DNA of 64,000 nucleotides from Shigella phage SHFML-26, in the sequence record KX130862. One strand, written 5' to 3'. The first letter of the stretch is position 1, and each line of letters begins with the position of its first letter. Shown here one piece after another: positions 423-62,976 of this stretch. The notes beneath the pieces are model-generated. The model was not told the origin of the DNA, did no database searches, and saw only the letters and a list, made by a program, of their open reading frames with translations. The position numbers and the translations under genes are program-made.

Positions 423-2010
<1,588 letters not shown>

Positions 2011-2037
2011 AATAAAATGGGCCTTGCGGCCCACTCC

Positions 2038-2540
2038 TTAAAAGTATTTTTTAAAACTCATCATAACTTTATCATCAACATCATTATCAATCTGTGCAAC
2101 AAGGTAAGATGACAATTCTACTTCTTGTGGCGCAGATTGAACATTATCAGAATTAAGATATTCACGAATCCAAGGATATGGATGTTTAACCGGAGCATCG
2201 GTAATTGGGCATGGAAGACCACACTGCTTCATACGAGATACAGTTAAGTAATCAATAAAGCTCCACATGCTATTTGTATTTAATCCAGGAACATCTCCAT
2301 CTTTAAATAAATGAACTGCCCAATCTTTTTCTTGGCGGTTAACTTCCATGAAAATATCAACTGCTTCTTGTTCACACTCTTGAGCAATTTTAACCCATTC
2401 ATCGCCATCAGTACCAGATTGAAGTTGACGAATAATATATTGGGTGCCTTTAAGGTGAAGCTGCTCATCACGCGCAATGAACTTCATAATCTTAGCATTA
2501 CCTTCCATGATTTCCATATTCTTATGGAAGTTAAAGGTAC
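2038..2540 (-). CDS. nrdB: ribonucleotide reductase small subunit NrdB, exon 2
   Basis: MEIMEGNAKIMKFIARDEQLHLKGTQ... RNR beta C-terminal half; joins exon 1 in frame (676+503 nt = 393 codons). Confidence 0.85.
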
Positions 2541-3630
2541 CGTATGTTCGATTGAGCTCGCTAATTCTCAACCCGTTCTCTTATGAACTGCTGCATGTTA
2601 CCATGCAGTCCAGACTATATCACAATCCCGGAGGGATTCTCCCCATTTCGAGTCGCTTGACCCTACGTCCGAAGACTAGTCGTTGAACCTTGTTTTGCAA
2701 TTGTCGCCGTGCCATCGTTTATATGTTGATGGTGATAAATCTTTCTTATCACAATATGGACAATTCAATTGAATTCTATTTGGATTTAATTTACATCTGT
2801 CATTATGTTTTAGATAAAATCCAGGACCTTTACCAATGTGACCACAGAAATCACATGTGATTTCTTTTTGTGCAGGATGGGTCCCGTTCTTAACCATTTC
2901 TAATGTTTTTGCTGATGTTCTTTTCTTATGGTCTTCTGATAAGAAATGATGTGAACCGTCATTTACCCGTTTTGATTGAGTTTCTGACTGCATTTTACCA
3001 CCGCAAAATACATGAGTACCTTCTTTTATAGCTGCAATATTGCGTTCTTTAACTTTTGCAATATGCTCAGCTTGTTGAAAATTATGTATACCTAATGCAG
3101 CTCTATTTAAATTAGATTTACGCTGTATTTCACCATCTAAAAGATGAAATGTACCATTTTCTATCTTAGATTTAATAGAGGCAATATTTTTAGCTCGTAC
3201 TTCAGGGATATTAAAAATCTGGATTTCTCTAGATTTTGCGGCTTTAGAAGCTAATTCAGAAATTTCTTCAGGAGAATATTTCATTCTAAGCTTTATAGCA
3301 TGACAAGCCTGGTAATCTTTTTGAGCTAAATGTATATCATAATGTTCCTGTATAGAAAGGCACATCAAATTATCTAAATCATTATTTTCACGGTTACCGT
3401 CTTTATGATGGATTTCGTATGTTCTTCCATCAGAATCTTTAGGTATAGGTCCGTTAGCATCTATCCAAATTTTTCTATAGTTCAATTGTGCATCCTCTTA
3501 AAAGTATAATCATATTTATATTATACTAATTAAAGGTGCAAGCAAAACCTTGGCTGCTAGTTTTCCTATAAAGGACTTTCCAGCAATTAAAGGAGTTTTC
3601 GATAAACGTTACCGTTTAAAGGCGCATTTT
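2541..3630 (-). mobile_element. group I self-splicing intron in nrdB (about 1090 nt) carrying I-TevIII
   Basis: Exon 1 ends on U, intron ends on G; 3' core (approx 2571-2690) resembles the td intron 3' core at 8081-8225; contains an HNH endonuclease ORF. Confidence 0.8.
2676..3485 (-). CDS. I-TevIII: HNH homing endonuclease I-TevIII, full length (269 aa)
   Basis: Intron-encoded ORF with HHKDGNRENNDLDNLMCLSIQEHYDIH HNH motif and C-terminal Cys-rich zinc-finger-like region. Confidence 0.85.
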   Translation of the reverse strand: MNYRKIWIDANGPIPKDSDGRTYEIHHKDGNRENNDLDNLMCLSIQEHYDIHLAQKDYQACHAIKLRMKYSPEEISELASKAAKSREIQIFNIPEVRAKNIASIKSKIENGTFHLLDGEIQRKSNLNRAALGIHNFQQAEHIAKVKERNIAAIKEGTHVFCGGKMQSETQSKRVNDGSHHFLSEDHKKRTSAKTLEMVKNGTHPAQKEITCDFCGHIGKGPGFYLKHNDRCKLNPNRIQLNCPYCDKKDLSPSTYKRWHGDNCKTRFND

Positions 3631-4306
3631 ACGCAAAAGATACATAAAAACGAATTGCTTCTAAGGCATTAATAACGTGCAAACAGAGGTAAAGAGATTT
3701 CATTAAAGCACGTTTAGCTTCGGCTTCTTGTTTAATAGCTCGGTTTAAACGAAAATCGGCATCAGGAGATTCTTTAGCTAGTTCTACAAATTCTTTAGCA
3801 TTTTCCCATTCACGGGTTTTAATCAGAACGTCATCATAATAGCGTCCAATGGATTCAGCACGTTTCATAATAGCTTCATCTAATACAATCTCATCAAATA
3901 CCTTTGACGGATCAGTATAAAGATTTCGCATGATATGTGTATATGAACGGCTGTGAATAGTTTCACTAAAAGTCCATGTAGCAACCCATGTATCAAGACT
4001 CGGGTCTGAAATTAATGACATAAGTACAGCAGACGGCGCACGACCCTGAATGCTATCTAAAAGTGATTGATACTTCAGGTTGTTAGTAAAAATATTTTGC
4101 TGGTACTGAGGAAGCTTATTAAATTGTGCAGCATCCATCATCAAGTTTACTTCTTCAGGACGCCAAAAAAATGATAAAGATTTCTCAATAAGTTCTTCAA
4201 ATACTCTATGTCGTTGAATATCATATCGAGCTAAACCCAATCCAGAACCAAAAAACATCGGCTCAGTCAAAATATTAACAGGGGATGTATTAAAAACTGT
4301 ACTCAT
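3631..4306 (-). CDS. nrdB: ribonucleotide reductase small subunit NrdB, exon 1
   Basis: MSTVFNTSPVNILTEPMFFGSGLGLARYDIQRHRVFEEL... ending ...RFYVSFA then T of the split Cys codon; track ORF stop TAA lies in the intron. Confidence 0.85.
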
Positions 4307-4944
4307 TTAGAATCCTTAAATTTACATTTATCATAATGCCATCTTAAAGCATTGCCTTTATTAACTTTCTTGCCACAATGCGGACAAGGCGGATACTCTG
4401 TACCTTGCTTAGTTCTCAAAGAAATCAAATCACGGGTTTCTTTAGTATGAGGAACATCTCTTGTCGGAGAGATTGTACCATACATCGGATTAAGCACGCC
4501 GACTTTAGCAGCAGCTATATTCTTTTTAGCTTCTTCGGTTTTAGGTTTTCTCATGCGAGCTAAATGCTCTTTGGTAAATTTCCTTCCTTTAAGGGCTCTA
4601 CTTATCTTTTCTCTGGTTTCCATAGAAACTTCACGTCCTATAGCAGCTTCAGATAAACGTCGTCTACCTAATTCGTACAGTTGAGAAGAAATTTTATATG
4701 AGCGATTTTTACCAGTCAAGCACATTAAACCAAAAGCTTTCTTTAATCCTGGGGTGTCATATATTTTACATAAAAGCCAATGAGCTATAAAATGCTCTCT
4801 ACCTGTTAATTCAACTAAATTTTCTTTATCATCAGAACCTCCCATACATCTAGGGATTATATGATGTGTCTCTTTATATTCGGATAAAGGTTCCCGAGCC
4901 TGAGCTCGGGAAATTAGGTCATTATAGATTTTTTGATAATTCAT
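4303..4944 (-). CDS. mobE: freestanding HNH homing endonuclease
   Basis: 213 aa with ETHHIIPRCMGGSDDKENLVELTGREHFIAHW HNH motif and C-terminal CPHCGKK zinc ribbon; located between nrdA and nrdB. Confidence 0.65.
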   Translation of the reverse strand: MNYQKIYNDLISRAQAREPLSEYKETHHIIPRCMGGSDDKENLVELTGREHFIAHWLLCKIYDTPGLKKAFGLMCLTGKNRSYKISSQLYELGRRRLSEAAIGREVSMETREKISRALKGRKFTKEHLARMRKPKTEEAKKNIAAAKVGVLNPMYGTISPTRDVPHTKETRDLISLRTKQGTEYPPCPHCGKKVNKGNALRWHYDKCKFKDSK

Positions 4945-7208
4945 TACAATTTACACGCTGCACAATCGTCGGCTTTAGGAGTTTCTATTTCATAATCATC
5001 AGTACCAGAACCATCACGGGTATTATGATAATAGAAATTTTTAATGCCATAATACCATCCGTATAGCATGTCATCAATCATTATTGACATTGGAACCTTG
5101 CCTTTAGGGAAGATTTGGGGGTCATAGTATGTATTCGCCGAAGCTGATTGACAAACCCATTTCAGCATAATAGCTACCTGCGTAAGATAAGGTTTATTAC
5201 CTTTCTTAGCTAATTTCCATGTATAATCATATAGGTCTATGTTATGCTCAATATTGGGCACGACTTGATTAAAGGAGCCCTCTTTTGATTCTTTAACAGA
5301 GACTGGTCCACGTGGAGGCTCGATACCGTTTGTACTGTTAGAAACTTGGGAAGATGACTCACATGGCATAAGTGCTGATAATGTGCTATTACGGATGCCA
5401 AAGAGCTTAAGGTCTTCCCGCAGCGACGACCAGTCACAAACGTATTTTGGAGCTGCGATTTGGTCAATCTTTTTATTGTACCAGTCGATAGGTAATTCGC
5501 CTCGAGACCAACGAGTGTCTGAATAATATTCGCAAGGTCCTTTTTCTTTGGCGAGCTTAATGGATGCTTTAATGAGTCCATACTGTAATCTCTCAAATAG
5601 TTCATGTGTTAAATCGTTAGCATCTTCATAAGAAGCAAAGTTACTTGCCAACCAAGCTGCATAGTTGGTAACACCTACACCAAGGTTACGACGCTTTTTA
5701 GCTTTTTCTGCTTCAGGAACTGGATATCCTTGGTAATCCAACAGATTATCAAGAGCACGAACTTGAACTTCTGCCAATTCATTAATTTTATCTTGGTCTT
5801 GCCAGTCAAAATTATCTAGTACGAATGCAGAGAGAGTACACAATCCAATTTCAGCATCAGGACTATTCACATCATTTGTTGGAATAGCAATTTCACAGCA
5901 CAAGTTACTCTGACGAATAGGTGCCTTTTCACGAATAAACGGAGTATAGTTATTCGTATTATCAATGAACTGTACATAAATTCTTGCTGTTCCTGAGCGT
6001 TCAGTCATGAGCAATTCAAATAGTTCACGGGCTTTAATACGCTTTTTACGAATATTAGGGACTTTTTCTGCTGCTTCGCATAATTCACGGAAACGGCTTT
6101 GGTCTTTAAAATAAGAATAATAAAGCTCGCCACCCATTTAATGTGGACTGAACAAAGTAATGTAATCGTTCTTTCCGAATCGTTCCATCATCAAATCATT
6201 CAGTTGAACACCATAATCCATATGACGAATGCGGTTTTCTTCTACGCCTTTGTTATTTTTCAAAACGAGAAGATTTTCAACTTCCAAATGCCAAATAGGA
6301 TAATAAGCAGTAGCAGCGCCGCCACGAATTCCGCCCTGTGAACATGAGTTAACTGCAGCCTGAAAATGTTTCCAAAAAGGAATAACACCAGGATGGCATA
6401 CATCACCCATGCCAATCTCAGAACCTTCGGCACGAATCATACCAACGTTAATACCAATTCCAGCGCGTTTAGAGATATATTCAACAATTGAAGCGGAAGC
6501 CTTATTGATAGACTTCAATGAATCACCTGCCTCAATAACAACACATGAACTAAACTGTCGAGTCGGAGTACGGCAACCAGCCATAATAGGAGTTGGCAAT
6601 GAAATCTGTCGAGTAGATACTGCTTCATAAAAACGGATAACATGTTTTAATCTATCAACAGGTTCATCTTGATGCAATGCCATTCCAATAGTCATAAATG
6701 CAAACTGCGGAGTTTCATAAATTTGACCGGTGGTTTTATCTTTGACTAGATATTTTTCTTTTAATTGCATCGCTCCGGAATAAGTAAATTCCATATCCCG
6801 CTCGTGCTTAATTTTTGATTCTAAAAATGTAATTTCTTCCGCAGAATATTTTGACAATAATTCAGGGTCATATTTACCTTCATTTACACAGTAAGAAATA
6901 TGGTCAATAAATGAACGTGGTTCATACTGCCCATAAACATGCTTACGAAGAGCAAACATTAAACAGCGTGCAGCTACATATTGATAATCAGGTTCTTCAA
7001 CCGAAATAGAATTCGCAGCAGCCTTAATGACAATAGTCTGAATATCATCAGTTGTCATTCCATCACGGAGATAAGATTTAATATTTTCATATAATTCATA
7101 AGGATCTACTGATGTTCCTTCAGCTGCCCAAGATAAAACTTTAATAATTTTTTGTGGGTCAAAGCTCTGAGAAACACCACTACTTTTGATAACATTAATT
7201 AATTGCAT
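4944..7208 (-). pseudogene. nrdA: ribonucleotide reductase large subunit NrdA, reading frame interrupted by in-frame TAA at 6138..6140
   Basis: Track ORFs 6138..7208 (356 aa, ...LFSPH*) and 4944..6137 (397 aa, MGGELYYSYF...) are one RNR alpha frame split by a single stop codon; 356+1+397 = 754 codons. Confidence 0.85.
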
Positions 7209-8077: not shown

Positions 8078-9093
8078 CATTATGTTCAGATAAGGTCGTT
8101 AATCTTACCCCGGAATTATATCCAGCTGCATGTCACCATGCAGATCAGACTATATCTCCAACTTGTTAAAGCAAGTTGTCTATCGTTTCGAGTCACTTGA
8201 CCCTACTCCCCAAAGGGATAGTCGTTAGGCATTTATGTAGAACCAATTCCATTTATCAGATTTTACACGATAAGTAACTAATCCAGACGAAATTTTAAAA
8301 TGTCTAGCTGCATCTGCTGCACAATCAAAAATAACCCCATCACATGAAATCTTTTTAATATTACTAGGCTTTTTACCTTTCATCTTTTCTGATATTTTAG
8401 ATTTAGTTATGTCTGAATGCTTATGATTAAAGAATGAATTATTTTCACCTGAACGATTTCTGCATTTACTACAAGTATAAGCAGAAGTTTGTATGCGAAC
8501 ACCGCACTTACAAAACTTATGGGTTTCTGGATTCCAACGCCCGTTTTTACTTCCGGGTTTACTGTAAAGAGCTTTCCGACCATCAGGTCCAAGTTTAAGC
8601 ATCTTAGCTTTAACAGTTTCAGAACGTTTCTTAATAATTTCTTCTTTTAATGGATGCGTAGAACATGTATCACCAAACGTTGCATCAGCAATATTGTATC
8701 CATTAATTTTAGAATTAAGCTCTTTAATCCAAAAATTTTCTCGTTCAATAATCAAATCTTTCTCATATGGAATTTCTTCCAAAATAGAACATTCAAACAC
8801 ATTACCATGTTTGTTAAAAGACCTCTGAAGCTTTATAGAAGAATGGCATCCTTTTTCTAAATCTTTAAAATGCCTCTTCCATCTCTTTTCAAAATCTTTA
8901 GCACTTCCTACATATACTTTATTGTTTAAAGTATTTTTAATCTGATAAATTCCGCTTTTCATAAATACCTCTTTAAATATAGAAGTATTTATTAAAGGGC
9001 AGTCCTACAATTTAGCACGGGATTGTCTACTAGAGAGGTTCCCCGTTTAGATAGATTACAAGTATAAGTCACCTTATACTCAGGCCTCAATTA
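8078..9093 (-). mobile_element. td group I self-splicing intron (1016 nt) carrying I-TevI
   Basis: Intron begins UAAUUGAGGCCUGAGUAUAAGGUGACUUAUAC... right after exon 1 GGU and ends ...CUGAACAUAAUG; matches the T4 td intron as recalled. Confidence 0.9.
8225..8962 (-). CDS. I-TevI: GIY-YIG homing endonuclease I-TevI (245 aa)
   Basis: MKSGIYQIKNTLNNKVYVGSAKDFEKRWKRH... GIY-YIG N-terminal domain, Zn finger and C-terminal DNA-binding region; inside the td intron. Confidence 0.9.
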   Translation of the reverse strand: MKSGIYQIKNTLNNKVYVGSAKDFEKRWKRHFKDLEKGCHSSIKLQRSFNKHGNVFECSILEEIPYEKDLIIERENFWIKELNSKINGYNIADATFGDTCSTHPLKEEIIKKRSETVKAKMLKLGPDGRKALYSKPGSKNGRWNPETHKFCKCGVRIQTSAYTCSKCRNRSGENNSFFNHKHSDITKSKISEKMKGKKPSNIKKISCDGVIFDCAADAARHFKISSGLVTYRVKSDKWNWFYINA

Positions 9094-30643: not shown

Positions 30644-30653
30644 AGTATTCTCC

Positions 30654-30740
30654 TCAACTATTTTTAAAACCTAAAATACCAAAGTTTTTAAGATTGTCAC
30701 GATAGAACTGCATCACATGTTCGTTATGGAAATTACTCAT
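30654..30740 (-). CDS. stp: Stp peptide
   Basis: 28 aa [28 protein letters not shown], matching the start of T4 Stp as recalled; hand-translated. Confidence 0.7.
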
Positions 30741-33568: not shown

Positions 33569-34507
33569 TTATTTAAATTGTTCAGTAACGTCTTCAACTA
33601 CTTCGTATTGGCAGGTACGCATTTTAGCATCGTTGTAATCAATCGGAATTGATACTACATCGCGAGGATGAACTTTAACTTTTACAACTCGGCTGGTTGA
33701 ACTACCAAAGTGACGAATATAAGATTTAGAACACACATGCAGACCGCGAGAACAAGTCTGTGTATCATCGTCATTCACACGAGTACGTGGCATTTTAACT
33801 ACTTTACCCGGACTGTTATCAAAGGTGTTTGAGTGACAGTCAAAGTAATTGCTGCGAACTACTTTCCAAGCATAGAAGTAGCCATCTTCTGTAATTTCAA
33901 TATCGTTTGCTACCAAGAAATCAAAGAGTCGAGATACCGCTTTTTGGCTTGGGTTTTCCAACAGATTTTCCAAGAACGGAAAATAAAATTCAAAGTTTTC
34001 GCCTTTTTCCATCGAGTCAAGAATACGATCAACCAAACCAGACCGCAATTCAATATTTTGATAGAACAAGCTTCCACCTTCAATTCGAACATCGCCGGAA
34101 ATATATTTTTCAACAGCGCGACGAACATTAATTTTTTGTGCAGCTTCTTCCAGCTTATCTGCTACAAGCAGATTAAGAATTTCCTGGAAGTTTGAATGAG
34201 TATTAGGAGTTGCGTTATAAGTTACACCGTCAACAGTAATTGAAATGAATTTTTTAGATGCATTCCAAATAATGTCAGATTTAGCAACTGGAGCAATAAC
34301 TGCATCGCTATTAACTTTAACTGTAATATCACCGCTAATAGTAACTTTAGGGCGTTTAGCTTCTTCAGCATTTTTCAAAACACGACGGATTGTGTCAACC
34401 GATACATCCTTCCAATAAGCCAATTCCTGTTGGGTGTAATTACCACTTGAATACAGTTTAACAATTTCAGCTTGTTCGTTTTTGGTCAGGCATTTAATAT
34501 TGTACAT
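33569..34507 (-). CDS. rIIB: rIIB protein
   Basis: 312 aa MYNIKCLTKNEQAEIVKLYSSGNYTQQELAYWKDVSVDTIRR... Confidence 0.95.
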   Translation of the reverse strand: MYNIKCLTKNEQAEIVKLYSSGNYTQQELAYWKDVSVDTIRRVLKNAEEAKRPKVTISGDITVKVNSDAVIAPVAKSDIIWNASKKFISITVDGVTYNATPNTHSNFQEILNLLVADKLEEAAQKINVRRAVEKYISGDVRIEGGSLFYQNIELRSGLVDRILDSMEKGENFEFYFPFLENLLENPSQKAVSRLFDFLVANDIEITEDGYFYAWKVVRSNYFDCHSNTFDNSPGKVVKMPRTRVNDDDTQTCSRGLHVCSKSYIRHFGSSTSRVVKVKVHPRDVVSIPIDYNDAKMRTCQYEVVEDVTEQFK

Positions 34508-41586: not shown

Positions 41587-42126
41587 TTATCTCATTTCAA
41601 TAAAATCTACAAGTTCAGCATGGGATTTACGGAACATTACTTGGTGTCCGCCAATAATAACTTGGTCATCTGGCACTTCGTATACAGCAAGATAAAATCC
41701 TTTAGAAGATAATTCTTCACGCTCTTCTCGTGTGAACCATCTCATCATATCATATTCGCTAGCGAAAGCAAAATGATAAAGAGCTACAAACCATCCGGGA
41801 ATATGATATTCTACTCCAACATAATCTTTCTTGAACTTAGTATTAATTACGATATTAGCATTTTTAACTAATAGTTTGTCTTCGTGCGGAAGAGGAATTC
41901 TTTTATTATCATTACTATGATGCATAAAATTAGGTCTGTCATAACCTACGTGTAATAACCACTCTTCACTCCATGAATCTATTATACTTCTATATGGCGT
42001 TATTTGAACACAAAGATTTCGACGTATTGTTATAGCATCTTCATAATTAAGAATACTAAAAGATGATTCAACACGATAAATTTTCATTTTATTATCCTCA
42101 GTAGCTATGGTGTTATAATACCACAA
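41587..42126 (-). CDS. hypothetical protein (179 aa)
   Basis: Track ORF. Confidence 0.5.
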   Translation of the reverse strand: MWYYNTIATEDNKMKIYRVESSFSILNYEDAITIRRNLCVQITPYRSIIDSWSEEWLLHVGYDRPNFMHHSNDNKRIPLPHEDKLLVKNANIVINTKFKKDYVGVEYHIPGWFVALYHFAFASEYDMMRWFTREEREELSSKGFYLAVYEVPDDQVIIGGHQVMFRKSHAELVDFIEMR

Positions 42127-53111: not shown

Positions 53112-53363
53112 TTAAAACTTCTGCAAATCACATGTTACAAACTGTTTCTCTAACTTGGCGATTTTACGAAAGTATCTTTTGCATTGACGAATCTGTCGCT
53201 TTGTAGGGCGCACAACAAACTTAATAAATTCCACTCGACCAAATGGAGGGCTTTCTTCTGCCGGAATATCTAATACTAATTCCCACGTATCTGCAATAAG
53301 TGCTTTGAATTGAGTATTTTTCCTGACGTTATACGGAGTAGGTTTAAATAAAACAATATGCAT
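53112..53363 (-). CDS. small basic protein (83 aa), 61.4-like by position
   Basis: Track ORF 53112..53405 trimmed to Met with GAGGA RBS just after the dmd stop; Lys/Arg-rich. Confidence 0.5.
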   Translation of the reverse strand: MHIVLFKPTPYNVRKNTQFKALIADTWELVLDIPAEESPPFGRVEFIKFVVRPTKRQIRQCKRYFRKIAKLEKQFVTCDLQKF

Positions 53364-53364
53364 A

Positions 53365-53547
53365 TTATCCTCGGCAATCCACTTCACATACTTTCTTGTC
53401 ATCAATGAAAGCTTTAACTAATGCTTTATTAACTTCAGCATATTGAGTAGTAGCCCATTGAACGTCATCTTTCATCATTGTGATCTCTTTAGTAAACATG
53501 CTTTCGTTCTTAAACCACCCCATAAAAACTACCTTTACCAATTCCAT
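53365..53547 (-). CDS. dmd: Dmd (antitoxin against host RnlA/LsoA)
   Basis: 60 aa MELVKVVFMGWFKNESMFTKEITMMKDDVQWATTQY... Confidence 0.75.
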   Translation of the reverse strand: MELVKVVFMGWFKNESMFTKEITMMKDDVQWATTQYAEVNKALVKAFIDDKKVCEVDCRG

Positions 53548-59195: not shown

Positions 59196-61706
59196 TCAGC
59201 CAAACAGGAAGTCTAACGAAGCTTTTTCTTCATAGTCCATACCTGCCGATTCACACATACCTGCAAGCGGCTTAACAAACGATTTTTGGAACAAAGTTGA
59301 GTAGTCAATCCAAGATAGTACGTCAGAACGAATTTCTTTTGGAAGTTCTGTACCTGATGGCCAAGCAATGCACTTGTCACCAAATGGATTTCCTTCACGT
59401 AATGGAAGAACCATTACTTTATTTCCATCCAAAATTGGAGCTACACCTAAACCACTAACAGCTCGACGATAAGTTAGCACACCACGAATATGGAATGGGC
59501 ATTTAAATCCTGGCCAACCTTTATCATCATATTTCGCTATATCGTTCGCAGTTTTTACTTCAGCAATAACTTTATAGTCAAGTTGACGATATTCTTTCTC
59601 GAAGTTCTTGTAGTATTCTTGGACAGACTCTTCACCTTCCTGAAGAATACGACGAATACTTTCTTCGAGAGCTTCTTGCACCGCTTTTGGTGTTGAACTC
59701 TGCTGAGTTTCCATACCCATGATTTTTAGATGCGGTTCGGCAAATCGCTTATCTTCCATATCATAAACGTTCAGAGCATAACGTTTTTTCGCTTTCCAAA
59801 ATCCACCAACACCCTTTGAACCAAGCGGAGGGCAAGAAATAGCTTCACGGTCCATATGCATCAGATGCTCGCGGTTATTCATATAATCACATAACTCACG
59901 ATATGCAACATCAATCATAGGTTCCATCTTTTTCTTACCAAACTGATTCATGAATTCAACTAAATCATTTTGTTCTTTAAAGCGGTCAAGACCTACTTTT
60001 TCAATTACTTTATCTACACAAACATATACCGAATCAGTATCACCTGCTGCGATGAAATCTTCACCATTAGTTCCACATACTTTATTCAGATATTCATTAA
60101 TTTTGCGAGCAATCCATTGAATACCGACTTGACCGAAAATTGTGATAGCAGTAGCATTTCGCAAATCATAGTAGCGGAAATGAATATTACCAAGAGCACC
60201 ATAAAGACTGTTAATAAGAATTTTACGGTTCAACTGATTTGTGTTAGCAAGTGTAGCAGCTTTTTCACATTCTTCAATCAGACTGTTAAGAACAGATTCG
60301 GTGTAATTCGATAATTCGTTTAAGAAATCATCATTGAACTTAACATATCGTTCAACTTCCGGTTTAGTTGAACAGGACCCTGCGCCTTTCATAATAATCT
60401 TTTTAATAGCTTCGGCATTCATTTCTTCAGCGAACATTTTCTTTTTCCAATCTTTACGCTGGAAAAATACTTTAGCGATTTCCTTTGGAATGATACCTTC
60501 TTGATGCTTATCATACATCCATCCATTCGGAGAACAAGAATATTCATCACTCGGTTTAGGAGCTGTTCCTGCGATATATTCATGAATTGGATGAACTTTA
60601 AACTGCCCACGAATAGTCTCAGGACTAATGTTAACCTGACGAATAATGCTCGGATACAGAGACGTCAAGTCAAAACTCATAATATATCGACGAGCAATTG
60701 GTTTAGGTTCAAATACAAATGCACCCGGAAAACTCTGTTTAACGTGCGAACCTTGTTGAGGAATAACCTTATGTTCACCTTTCAATGAGTTAAAAATAAT
60801 AGCATCCCAAGTTTTAATAGGACTCATTACACCAGAAAAAGGCATTTTAGCATAATAAGACATACTTAAAACTAGATCGATAAACCCGCGAATTTTATCA
60901 ATTGCTTGAACTGATTCTACGTCAATGATGTTATAACTAATGTATCGTTGATGATTAGTCTCACGAAGTTTATTAATAGGACCGTCGTATGGTAATTTAC
61001 CTTTTTTGGTTTCATGTTGAGCAACTGATTCCAAAGAGAATGACGGCAAATTAGTAAATGCGAATTTCTTATACAAATCTAAATAATCAAGAATAGATAC
61101 GCCATCAATAGAATAAATTTCTTTGCTACCGTACATATTTTGAATTAGTTTAGATTTTACCCGACCGATTGGAGAGAAACGTTTCATACTGCGTTCACCT
61201 AGAATCATTTTAACGCGATTCATAATATATGGAACGTCAAACCCCTCAATATTCCAACCAGTAAAAATAGCAGGTCGTTTCTGTTCCCAGAGATTGATAT
61301 ATTCCATGAGCATATCACGCTCATTATCGAATGGCATATAAATTACTCGGTCAAGAATTTCTTGAGGAACTTCATCACCACCTTCACAGTCAAGCTTAGC
61401 AGCTAACTTTGCATCCCATTTTGATACTGAACCGTACATTGAATTCAAAAGGTCGAAAACATAAAAACGATCATCAATTGAATCGTAATGAGTGATAGCA
61501 TCAATTTCATATTCAGCTTTCATTGGGTCAGGAAATTTATCACCAGTAACCTCAATGTCACAGTTAGCTACACGAACAAATTTTCGGTCATAAACAATTT
61601 CTGAACCATACGTATCACTGATATAAGCGAGTTTAAAATCGTTCATACCGAGAGCTTCGAGACCGATGTCTTCCATTCGTTTCATCCAATCTCGAGCATA
61701 TTTCAT
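59196..61706 (-). CDS. 43: DNA polymerase gp43 (ORF as called; canonical N-terminal ~63 codons lie upstream and are interrupted)
   Basis: 836-aa family-B polymerase starting MKYARDWMKRMEDIGLEALGMNDFKLAY..., corresponding to T4 gp43 from about residue 63. Confidence 0.9.
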   Translation of the reverse strand: MKYARDWMKRMEDIGLEALGMNDFKLAYISDTYGSEIVYDRKFVRVANCDIEVTGDKFPDPMKAEYEIDAITHYDSIDDRFYVFDLLNSMYGSVSKWDAKLAAKLDCEGGDEVPQEILDRVIYMPFDNERDMLMEYINLWEQKRPAIFTGWNIEGFDVPYIMNRVKMILGERSMKRFSPIGRVKSKLIQNMYGSKEIYSIDGVSILDYLDLYKKFAFTNLPSFSLESVAQHETKKGKLPYDGPINKLRETNHQRYISYNIIDVESVQAIDKIRGFIDLVLSMSYYAKMPFSGVMSPIKTWDAIIFNSLKGEHKVIPQQGSHVKQSFPGAFVFEPKPIARRYIMSFDLTSLYPSIIRQVNISPETIRGQFKVHPIHEYIAGTAPKPSDEYSCSPNGWMYDKHQEGIIPKEIAKVFFQRKDWKKKMFAEEMNAEAIKKIIMKGAGSCSTKPEVERYVKFNDDFLNELSNYTESVLNSLIEECEKAATLANTNQLNRKILINSLYGALGNIHFRYYDLRNATAITIFGQVGIQWIARKINEYLNKVCGTNGEDFIAAGDTDSVYVCVDKVIEKVGLDRFKEQNDLVEFMNQFGKKKMEPMIDVAYRELCDYMNNREHLMHMDREAISCPPLGSKGVGGFWKAKKRYALNVYDMEDKRFAEPHLKIMGMETQQSSTPKAVQEALEESIRRILQEGEESVQEYYKNFEKEYRQLDYKVIAEVKTANDIAKYDDKGWPGFKCPFHIRGVLTYRRAVSGLGVAPILDGNKVMVLPLREGNPFGDKCIAWPSGTELPKEIRSDVLSWIDYSTLFQKSFVKPLAGMCESAGMDYEEKASLDFLFG

Positions 61707-61895
61707 TGATGGTAAATTTTTGAGGTAGCGCTAGTTTTTACCATAGATGTCTTTGTACTTTGACTCTTCCTTACAATGCCTAAACATAGTTGGAAGATAT
61801 TCTACTTCACGAGTACGTTCCTTTCCGTTTTCATCAATATAACGTTCAACAATGTTATTTCCGACTGTTTCAATAGAGATATAAAATTCTTTCAT
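61707..61895 (-). other. 43: interrupted 5' segment of gene 43 (54 codons, TAG, 8 codons, in frame with the main ORF)
   Basis: Reverse complement encodes [65 protein letters not shown]; coordinates approximate. Confidence 0.6.
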
Positions 61896-62196: not shown

Positions 62197-62976
62197 TTAA
62201 TTACCAATCGTATATTTAGGAACGAGTTTCCATTCATGCTTTTGTTTAAAAGAAATAACTCGGAAGTTATTAGTTAAATCTTTCATAAAAGTTCTTTGAC
62301 CAGGAACGATTTCAATCAGTCCCCAATCTTCTAATAGCCATGCAATCGAATCACGACGAACTTCATCTTCTTCTGTCATTTCAACTTGGCGACCATCCAT
62401 ACGAAGCATTTCTTTAAAATGAACGATATAGTGCTTGCAGATTTCAGTCAATCGACGAATCATCTGCTTCATCATTTCAATTTTATCTTCATCGGTCGGT
62501 TGACCGAACGTAATAACTCGGCAGCGTGACTGAAGTGGTTTAATAATACCATCAATATTATTAGCAGTAATAATAATACTGCAGTTTGAACTATAAGCTT
62601 CCATAAAGGAACGAAGATGTCGCTGAGACTCTGCTAACCCTGAGCGGTCAAATTCATCAATAACGATTACTTTTTGACGACCATCAAATGAAGCTGCACT
62701 AGCAAAATTAGTCAAAGGACCACGAACGAAATCAATTTTACAGTCTGATCCATTCACAAACATCATATCAGCATTTACATCATGACACAATGCTTTTGCT
62801 ACAGTTGTTTTACCTGTTCCTGGAGAAGGAGAATGAAGAATAATATGTGGAATTTTACCTTTACTTGTAATAGATTTAAAGGTTTCTTTATCAAAGGCGG
62901 GAAGAATACATTCATCGATAGTAGATGGACGATATTTCTGTTCAAGAATGTGTTCTTTTTCATTTACAGTAATCAT
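62197..62976 (-). CDS. 44: in-frame fusion ORF: clamp-loader gp44 N-terminal ~185 aa joined to RegA C-terminal ~76 aa
   Basis: MITVNEKEHILEQKYRP...SPSPGTGKTT...DEFD...SRC...MIRRLTEICKH then YIVHFKEMLRMDGRQVEMTEEDEV...KYTIGN without a stop. Confidence 0.8.
   Translation of the reverse strand: MITVNEKEHILEQKYRPSTIDECILPAFDKETFKSITSKGKIPHIILHSPSPGTGKTTVAKALCHDVNADMMFVNGSDCKIDFVRGPLTNFASAASFDGRQKVIVIDEFDRSGLAESQRHLRSFMEAYSSNCSIIITANNIDGIIKPLQSRCRVITFGQPTDEDKIEMMKQMIRRLTEICKHYIVHFKEMLRMDGRQVEMTEEDEVRRDSIAWLLEDWGLIEIVPGQRTFMKDLTNNFRVISFKQKHEWKLVPKYTIGN

Follow-up and report, generated by a model that had tools for sequence, protein, structure and literature searches.

Is the ribonucleotide reductase large subunit of Shigella phage SHFML-26 truly encoded in two pieces, or has the deposited sequence divided a gene that is whole in the phage? 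In record KX130862 the nrdA frame is interrupted by a stop codon and resumes directly at an ATG, an arrangement that might be read as a natural nonsense allele, as a gene expressed in two parts, or as an error of the consensus. We considered these readings by comparing a 64-kb stretch of the record (64,000 nucleotides, referred to here as the window), taken from a genome of 168,993 bp, with the corresponding loci of related T4-like phages.

The interrupted nrdA frame

The locus comprises the following features, with positions counted from the first letter of the window.

4944..7208, minus strand: nrdA, encoding the alpha subunit of class Ia ribonucleotide reductase in 754 codons plus stop, broken at codon 357
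6138..6140, minus strand: in-frame ochre TAA at nrdA codon 357, where relatives have GAA (Glu) and distant ones Asp
6135..6137, minus strand: ATG directly 3' of the TAA, corresponding to the native Met358 of NrdA in the alignment with relatives

Translation from 7208 to 4944 yields a 755-codon frame with one internal stop, so that the uninterrupted reading frame of an NrdA gene is lost at codon 357. The plus-strand letters at this point (6140..6138) are TTA, and the frame around the stop reads ...KNDYITLFSPH * MGGELYYSYFKD.... The initial annotation had described a TAA followed by an ATG within the nrdA frame, and both are present on the minus strand, at 6140..6138 and 6137..6135, with a gap of 0 nt between stop and start (TAAATG). 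The two resulting open reading frames encode 356 aa (7208..6138) and 397 aa (6137..4944) and are deposited as ANN86853.1 and ANN86852.1. That the halves add up to 754 codons also holds: the sum of 356, 1 and 397 equals the length of the intact NrdA in G4498, vB_ECOLIGBLB0003, WilhelmHis and BW-1.

Apart from the stop, the frame has the features expected of a class Ia enzyme. The SHFML-26 protein aligns colinearly to the 754-aa NrdA of relatives, with 97-98% identity, and comparison of the closest relative's intact NrdA with E. coli R1 gave E=1e-258 over residues 5-753. The catalytic motifs lie in frame (QFSSC at 218, NLCCE at 432, LCTLSAF at 455, FYY at 724 and the C-terminal CAAC), and they supply the equivalents of C225, N437/C439/E441, C462, Y730/Y731 and the C-terminal Cys pair. 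The break itself falls at the equivalent of E. coli D360. No Shine-Dalgarno motif was found in the 35 nt upstream of the ATG (GAAAGAACGATTACATTACTTTGTTCAGTCCACATTAA).

The identity of the ancestral codon is apparent from alignment with the nrdA genes of relatives. Where SHFML-26 reads CAT TAA ATG GGT, the phages G4498, UFV-AREG1 and PYPS2T read CAT GAA ATG GGT, and position 357 is Glu or Asp throughout the relatives examined (34 to more than 40, depending on the comparison), with GAA in the close ones. The earlier proposal that a sense codon, probably GAA, had become TAA by one G to T change agrees with this alignment, which supports derivation of the stop from the Glu357 codon by a single G>T substitution. 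Met358 is kept in close relatives and replaced by Val, Ile or Ala in distant ones; judged from these sequences, the ATG evidently predates the G>T change and is not a product of mutation.

We looked for the TAA allele in independent sequences. The closest genome overall is that of vB_ECOLIGBLB0003, with 98.6% identity across 25 kb; its gene order is the same, and its 2265-nt nrdA is intact. Exact-pattern scans with the TAA-bearing sequence gave 0 matches in IMG/VR and 0 in metagenome contigs, whereas the GAA-bearing pattern matched 5 times in IMG/VR and 6 times in the metagenome collection. None of 452 phage records that match a 91-nt nrdA stretch is identical to SHFML-26 over it. Likewise, a megablast search of 50,697 phage records, a set that does not include the SHFML-26 record, returned no identical nrdA stretch, the best match being 97.5%. 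By exact protein look-up, each of the two fragment proteins occurs on 1 contig only.

Two clusters of changes unique to the record

The stop codon belongs to a larger set of differences that are concentrated in two short stretches of nrdA. Both have a noise-like appearance and consist of residues unique to this record.

6333..6419, minus strand: patch 1, with K264E, E269D, R271C, T273P, T284A and K287N
6061..6140, minus strand: patch 2, with E357*, D371S (GAC>AGC), Y377C and D383V

The ten residues in these patches, together with A595S, distinguish the SHFML-26 NrdA from that of its closest relative. We compared them with NrdA from T4-like loci in GenBank and IMG/VR, of which 11 are close and 23 more distant. 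With the exception of A595S, the SHFML-26 residues are absent from 34 of the 34 relatives, among which the patch positions are invariant or nearly so. Patch 1 aligns to E. coli R1 residues 267-290, and across the two patches six of the residues that have been hit are identical in the E. coli enzyme (E272, T276, T287, K290, Y379 and D385 in E. coli numbering).

To place these changes in context, we scanned the window against four related genomes and scored as unique the changes found in SHFML-26 alone. The whole window holds 352 synonymous and 96 non-synonymous unique changes. Within nrdA there are 11 unique non-synonymous base changes, one of them the TAA, and all 11 lie inside the two patches of about 80 nt each, while the unique changes in the remaining ~1900 nt of the gene are synonymous only. 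Confinement of 11 changes to 359 of 2265 nt has a probability of p~1e-8. The ratio of non-synonymous to synonymous unique changes is 11:1 in the patches, with zero synonymous changes in patch 2 (6061-6140), and 85:351 in the rest of the window (Fisher p=2.7e-7). For large conserved genes of the window, namely rIIA, gp39, gp52, gp41, uvsX, gp42, beta-glucosyltransferase and both exons of nrdB, the number of unique non-synonymous changes is 0-2 per gene. The window outside the patches shows the usual signature of purifying selection.

The nrdA patches, by comparison, look like unselected noise. Their mutational spectrum, too, sets them apart from the natural non-synonymous changes of the window, coding-strand A being the starting base in 8 of 11 cases against 22 of 85 elsewhere (p=0.003). 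Computed over the ancestral patch sequence, random substitution would be non-synonymous in 79-82% of cases and would create a stop in 3-7.5%; given some 12 substitutions of this sort, at least one stop is to be expected roughly half the time. A single stop codon is unsurprising here because about a dozen noise-like changes fall in the patches.

The gene for the partner subunit lies nearby and is intact in both of its exons.

3629..4306, minus strand: nrdB exon 1, intact, with 7 synonymous and 0 non-synonymous unique changes
2038..2541, minus strand: nrdB exon 2, intact, with 4 synonymous and 0 non-synonymous unique changes

This amounts to 11 synonymous and 0 non-synonymous unique changes for nrdB as a whole. 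A 269-aa HNH open reading frame (2676-3485) lies in the intron that separates the two exons.

Several possible donors of the patch sequences were considered and rejected. Gene conversion by the host nrdA does not account for them: the ten residues are P, E, F, T, T, K, D, E, Y and D in E. coli R1, and E, D, C, P, A, N, *, S, C and V in SHFML-26. A mosaic acquired from an unsampled divergent phage was set aside as well, given that the 23 distant relatives mostly keep the ancestral residue and never show that of SHFML-26. Real mosaic patches do occur in the window and are mostly synonymous, as at 41787-42061, with 13 synonymous and 5 non-synonymous changes. A target of a diversity-generating retroelement (DGR), which is unlikely, would call for a nearby template repeat and for changes at adenines only; the window has no second copy of the patch, and bases other than A are affected by three of the 11 unique changes and by two additional differences.

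Defects in replication genes of the same record

Every long open reading frame of the relatives was checked for stops in the SHFML-26 window. Besides nrdA, the stop-bearing frames are gene 43 and a few short frames that are mostly antisense and spurious. Gene 43 and its surroundings contain the following features.

61700..61733, minus strand: defective patch in gene 43 (DNA polymerase), with 3 single-nt insertions and a C>A change relative to BW-1
62431..62432, no strand assigned: deletion junction at which ~1115 bp is missing relative to all three relatives that cover the stretch (WilhelmHis, BW-1 and D5505)
62197..62976, minus strand: 259-aa open reading frame made by the deletion, fusing the N-terminal part of gp44 to the C-terminal part of RegA (ANN86944.1)

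Gene 43 (61895..59196) is interrupted by an in-frame TAG at codon 55 (61733..61731). On the plus strand, the insertions are T residues at 61713, 61726 and 61732 and the substitution lies at 61700; together they convert ...YGKNCAPQKFPSMKD... into ...YGKN*RYLKNLPSMKY.... The 54 codons upstream of the TAG contain no unique change. The gene is split into parts of 54 aa and 836 aa, which GenBank lists as two 'DNA polymerase' CDS (ANN86942.1 and ANN86941.1), and exact look-up finds each of these fragment proteins on one contig.

The deletion junction lies ~700 nt beyond the gene 43 patch. The missing DNA corresponds to the first ~45 codons of regA, gene 62 in full and the final ~138 codons of the clamp-loader gene 44, and it is absent from elsewhere in the 64-kb window. 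The resulting fusion is annotated as a clamp-loader subunit and, like the polymerase fragments, is known from one contig only.

It is established in T4 genetics that DNA replication of the T4 type depends on genes 43, 44 and 62. For the clamp loader of T4, an essential role in DNA replication is stated in bioRxiv 10.1101/2023.10.18.562948. The ShigaShield/ShigActive product combines five phages, SHFML-26 among them; the SHFML-26 genome was read on a MiSeq instrument, and CLC Genomics Workbench was used at default settings for de novo assembly and annotation (PMC5376334). Because these genes are essential and the phage is propagated commercially, we infer that both defects, in gene 43 and in 44/62, arose in the deposited sequence and do not belong to the phage itself. 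On this inference such defects cannot be real, and the assembly holds local consensus errors.

The record of SHFML-11, a sister phage from the same laboratory, offers a control. Over 50 kb it has no comparable patches in conserved genes, and the patches are therefore no general signature of the pipeline. This comparison neither adds support for a problem specific to the SHFML-26 record nor argues against one.

Origin and significance of the nrdA stop

From these sequence comparisons, we suggest that the nrdA TAA is most likely a consensus or assembly artefact of the SHFML-26 record, and that the split should most probably not be counted as a feature of the phage's biology. The variant is confined to one record, noise-like changes accompany it, and other defects of that record are incompatible with viability. 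The nrdA patches probably share a cause with the defects in the essential genes, and would then represent further local errors; for example, coverage in these stretches may have been so low that error-bearing reads determined the consensus, and a stop codon would simply fall out of random base changes in a patch. Some considerations count against this explanation. A viable phage could carry the nrdA stop, which does not hold for the defects in gene 43 and 44/62, and a high-coverage Illumina consensus is normally accurate, which would mean that coverage was locally poor. The defects also differ in kind, with substitutions only in nrdA, mainly insertions in gene 43 and a deletion in 44/62, and may not stem from a single error process. 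Split-gene artefacts in deposited phage genomes have much in common with the present case, including a stop found in a single record, one-off changes, broken essential genes and fragments listed as separate CDS; they are, however, more often homopolymer indels, whereas the nrdA patches are pure substitutions.

The initial annotation leaned toward a real nonsense allele. On this reading nrdA has suffered a genuine loss of function, the host NrdAB supplies the activity, and the missense changes are genuine mutations that selection on the gene no longer removes. We consider this unlikely, and find an artefact to be the better explanation because of the noise-like patches and the broken essential genes of the same record. 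The allele does have points in its favor: one G>T change from GAA is enough to create it, T4 nrdA is dispensable and its mutants are viable, the missense changes look unselected as they would in a dead gene, and nrdA is disrupted in other Tequatrovirus records, for instance by a 127-nt duplication in PYPS2T and a homing-endonuclease insertion in UFV-AREG1. Decay of a dead gene should nevertheless run along its whole length, which is at odds with the confinement of 11 of 11 changes to two patches and the purely synonymous remainder, and relaxed constraint is missing from the partner nrdB as well. No independent contig has the TAA, and the impossible defects elsewhere in the record make its local accuracy untrustworthy. 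Classical T4 nrdA and nrdB mutants, viable since the host enzyme supplies dNTPs, resemble SHFML-26 in that one base change creates a stop in a gene T4 can spare, but they are isolated laboratory point mutations, whereas here a stop and ten further changes at conserved residues fall in two patches in a natural isolate. A different kind of real event, a strand-asymmetric and adenine-targeted hypermutation (DGR-like, by another reverse-transcriptase route or by translesion synthesis), could in principle have rewritten the two stretches and left the stop as a by-product. Such a process would fit the tight clustering, the absence of any base change shared with variants in 11 close relatives, and the bias of the starting base: coding-strand A is the origin of 8 of the 11 patch changes, which go to G, T and C (binomial p=0.006), compared with 22 of the 85 other non-synonymous changes (p=0.003). 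We nevertheless regard it as very improbable. The bias was spotted post hoc, only about 1 in 6 of the patch adenines is altered, and C>T, G>T, G>A and T>C changes are also present; moreover, the window has no second copy of a patch to serve as template, no reverse transcriptase is known from T4-like phages, and the insertions in gene 43 are not what such a process makes. If it were real, it would mean that a local mutagenic process acting on phage DNA had gone unrecognised and had knocked out a dispensable gene of nucleotide metabolism.

Two further readings would preserve a working enzyme, and we give them little credence. In one, translation terminates at the UAA and reinitiates at the AUG, and the 356-aa and 397-aa fragments form an active alpha subunit. 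The contiguity of stop and start suits this scheme, and T4 rIIB provides documented cases of translation restarting after a nonsense codon. The split NrdA of phage Aeh1, moreover, can be fully active (PMC3045599). In that phage, whose NrdA is the only known functional split form, the mobE insertion separates NrdA-a from NrdA-b between the equivalents of C439 and C462, the halves are translated independently, and activity drops 2000-fold when the acquired tail peptides are removed (PMC3045599). The likeness to SHFML-26 lies in two open reading frames that jointly cover the whole of NrdA. SHFML-26, in contrast, has no insertion, no tails and no ribosome-binding site, its cut at the D360 equivalent is placed differently, and its fragments begin and end with native NrdA residues. 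Nine additional missense changes at conserved residues lie on both sides of the cut, and the arrangement is found in no relative. The earlier judgment that the two fragments are unlikely to give a working alpha subunit is reasonable on these grounds, and we see only a remote chance that the split is functional. In the other reading, the nrdA TAA and the gene 43 TAG are both neutralised, either by programmed recoding or by a suppressor tRNA (ochre or amber) that the phage encodes. The presence of two in-frame stops in one record, and the fact that T4 tRNA genes can mutate to suppressors, might be taken to favor it. Against it stand the absence of tRNA genes from the 64-kb window (the T4-type cluster sits elsewhere in the genome, outside the window) and the conservation of neither stop in any relative, and readthrough could not mend the three frameshifting insertions of gene 43 or the 1.1-kb deletion. 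The likelihood of this reading appears close to nil.

Among close relatives, the nearest parallels to the SHFML-26 arrangement are the homing-endonuclease insertions of Tequatrovirus nrdA, which likewise leave two nrdA open reading frames. In UFV-AREG1 the split lies after residue ~494 and is accompanied by an I-HmuI-like endonuclease open reading frame and a duplicated 43-residue segment, neither of which is present in SHFML-26; an Rfam scan of the split UFV-AREG1 gene gave no match to a group I intron. The 477-aa NrdA fragments of vB_EcoM_112, REP3 and IME537 are putative cases of the same kind of insertion.

Were the SHFML-26 stop true, it would merely be a natural example of the dispensability of phage ribonucleotide reductase, long known from T4 genetics. 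The importance of the case is mainly one of curation, as SHFML-26 is a RefSeq entry as well as a component of a commercial Shigella phage product. The record annotates the split NrdA, the split DNA polymerase and the clamp-loader/RegA fusion as genes. These fragments are now in UniRef and nr, where they could mislead surveys of split ribonucleotide reductase genes or of the gene content of therapeutic phages.

Defects in gene 43 and across regA, gene 62 and gene 44
The window carries a disruption in the gene for the essential DNA polymerase and a deletion in the neighbouring regA region, and the features concerned are as follows.
61895..59196, minus strand: gene 43, essential DNA polymerase
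61700-61733, minus strand: defective patch within gene 43
62197-62976, minus strand: annotated 259-aa gp44-RegA fusion ORF, left over at the deletion
Three 1-nt insertions and one substitution give gene 43 an in-frame TAG at codon 55, and GenBank lists the pieces as two 'DNA polymerase' fragments of 54 and 836 aa. The 90% cluster that holds the 836-aa fragment has E. coli OpgD as its representative, which looks like a clustering oddity. At 62431/62432, about 1115 bp are absent that all three relatives covering this stretch (WilhelmHis, BW-1 and D5505) retain; this DNA codes for the N-terminus of RegA, the complete gene 62 product and ~138 codons at the C-terminal end of gene 44. We found no obvious repeat at the junction.

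Short changes unique to this record
Smaller changes absent from the related genomes compared occur elsewhere in the window, one of them in a small conserved ORF.
53112-53417, minus strand: small conserved ORF with an altered end
A 1-nt deletion at 53126 changes its final residues to ...VTCDLQKF*, in contrast to ...VTCDYAEVLK* in relatives, and may be another consensus error. Two short clusters of changes lie in the N-terminal region of rIIB (34351-34417; S65P, G46D, Q45K, D43Y and one synonymous change) and at 30645-30698, the latter indel-rich near 30.6 kb. Because both regions tolerate variation, natural differences and errors are indistinguishable there.

Homing-endonuclease ORFs near nrdA, nrdB and td
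Homing-endonuclease ORFs are densely packed in the nrdA/nrdB/td region of the window.
2676-3485, minus strand: full-length 269-aa HNH ORF inside the nrdB intron
4303-4944, minus strand: 213-aa HNH+NUMOD3 ORF in the nrdA-nrdB interval (mobE position)
8225-8962, minus strand: 245-aa ORF inside the td intron
The start of the 213-aa ORF overlaps the nrdA stop, and all three ORFs are shared with the closest relative, vB_ECOLIGBLB0003.

Disrupted nrdA in other phage records
In the UFV-AREG1 locus, in its own coordinates, nrdA is also in pieces.
1733-5124: split nrdA of UFV-AREG1
Here an I-HmuI-like endonuclease ORF interrupts the gene after residue ~494, a 43-residue segment (452-494) is duplicated, and no intron match was found in Rfam. 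Annotated 477-aa NrdA N-terminal fragments appear in the protein cluster from vB_EcoM_112, REP3, IME537, RPN226, FL12 and other Tequatrovirus records; these may reflect a similar arrangement, resembling the genes-in-pieces of Aeh1. In Yersinia phage PYPS2T, a 127-nt tandem duplication around codons 310-352 (about 2700-2890 of its own locus) splits nrdA into ORFs of 352 and 447 aa, a disruption that could be either real or an assembly artefact.

Many partial T4-like NrdA, RegA, gp44 and gp45 proteins in the clusters (MFP9..., WP_4114...) bear the label Enterococcus faecalis, which suggests that the assemblies behind them are contaminated with T4-like phage DNA.
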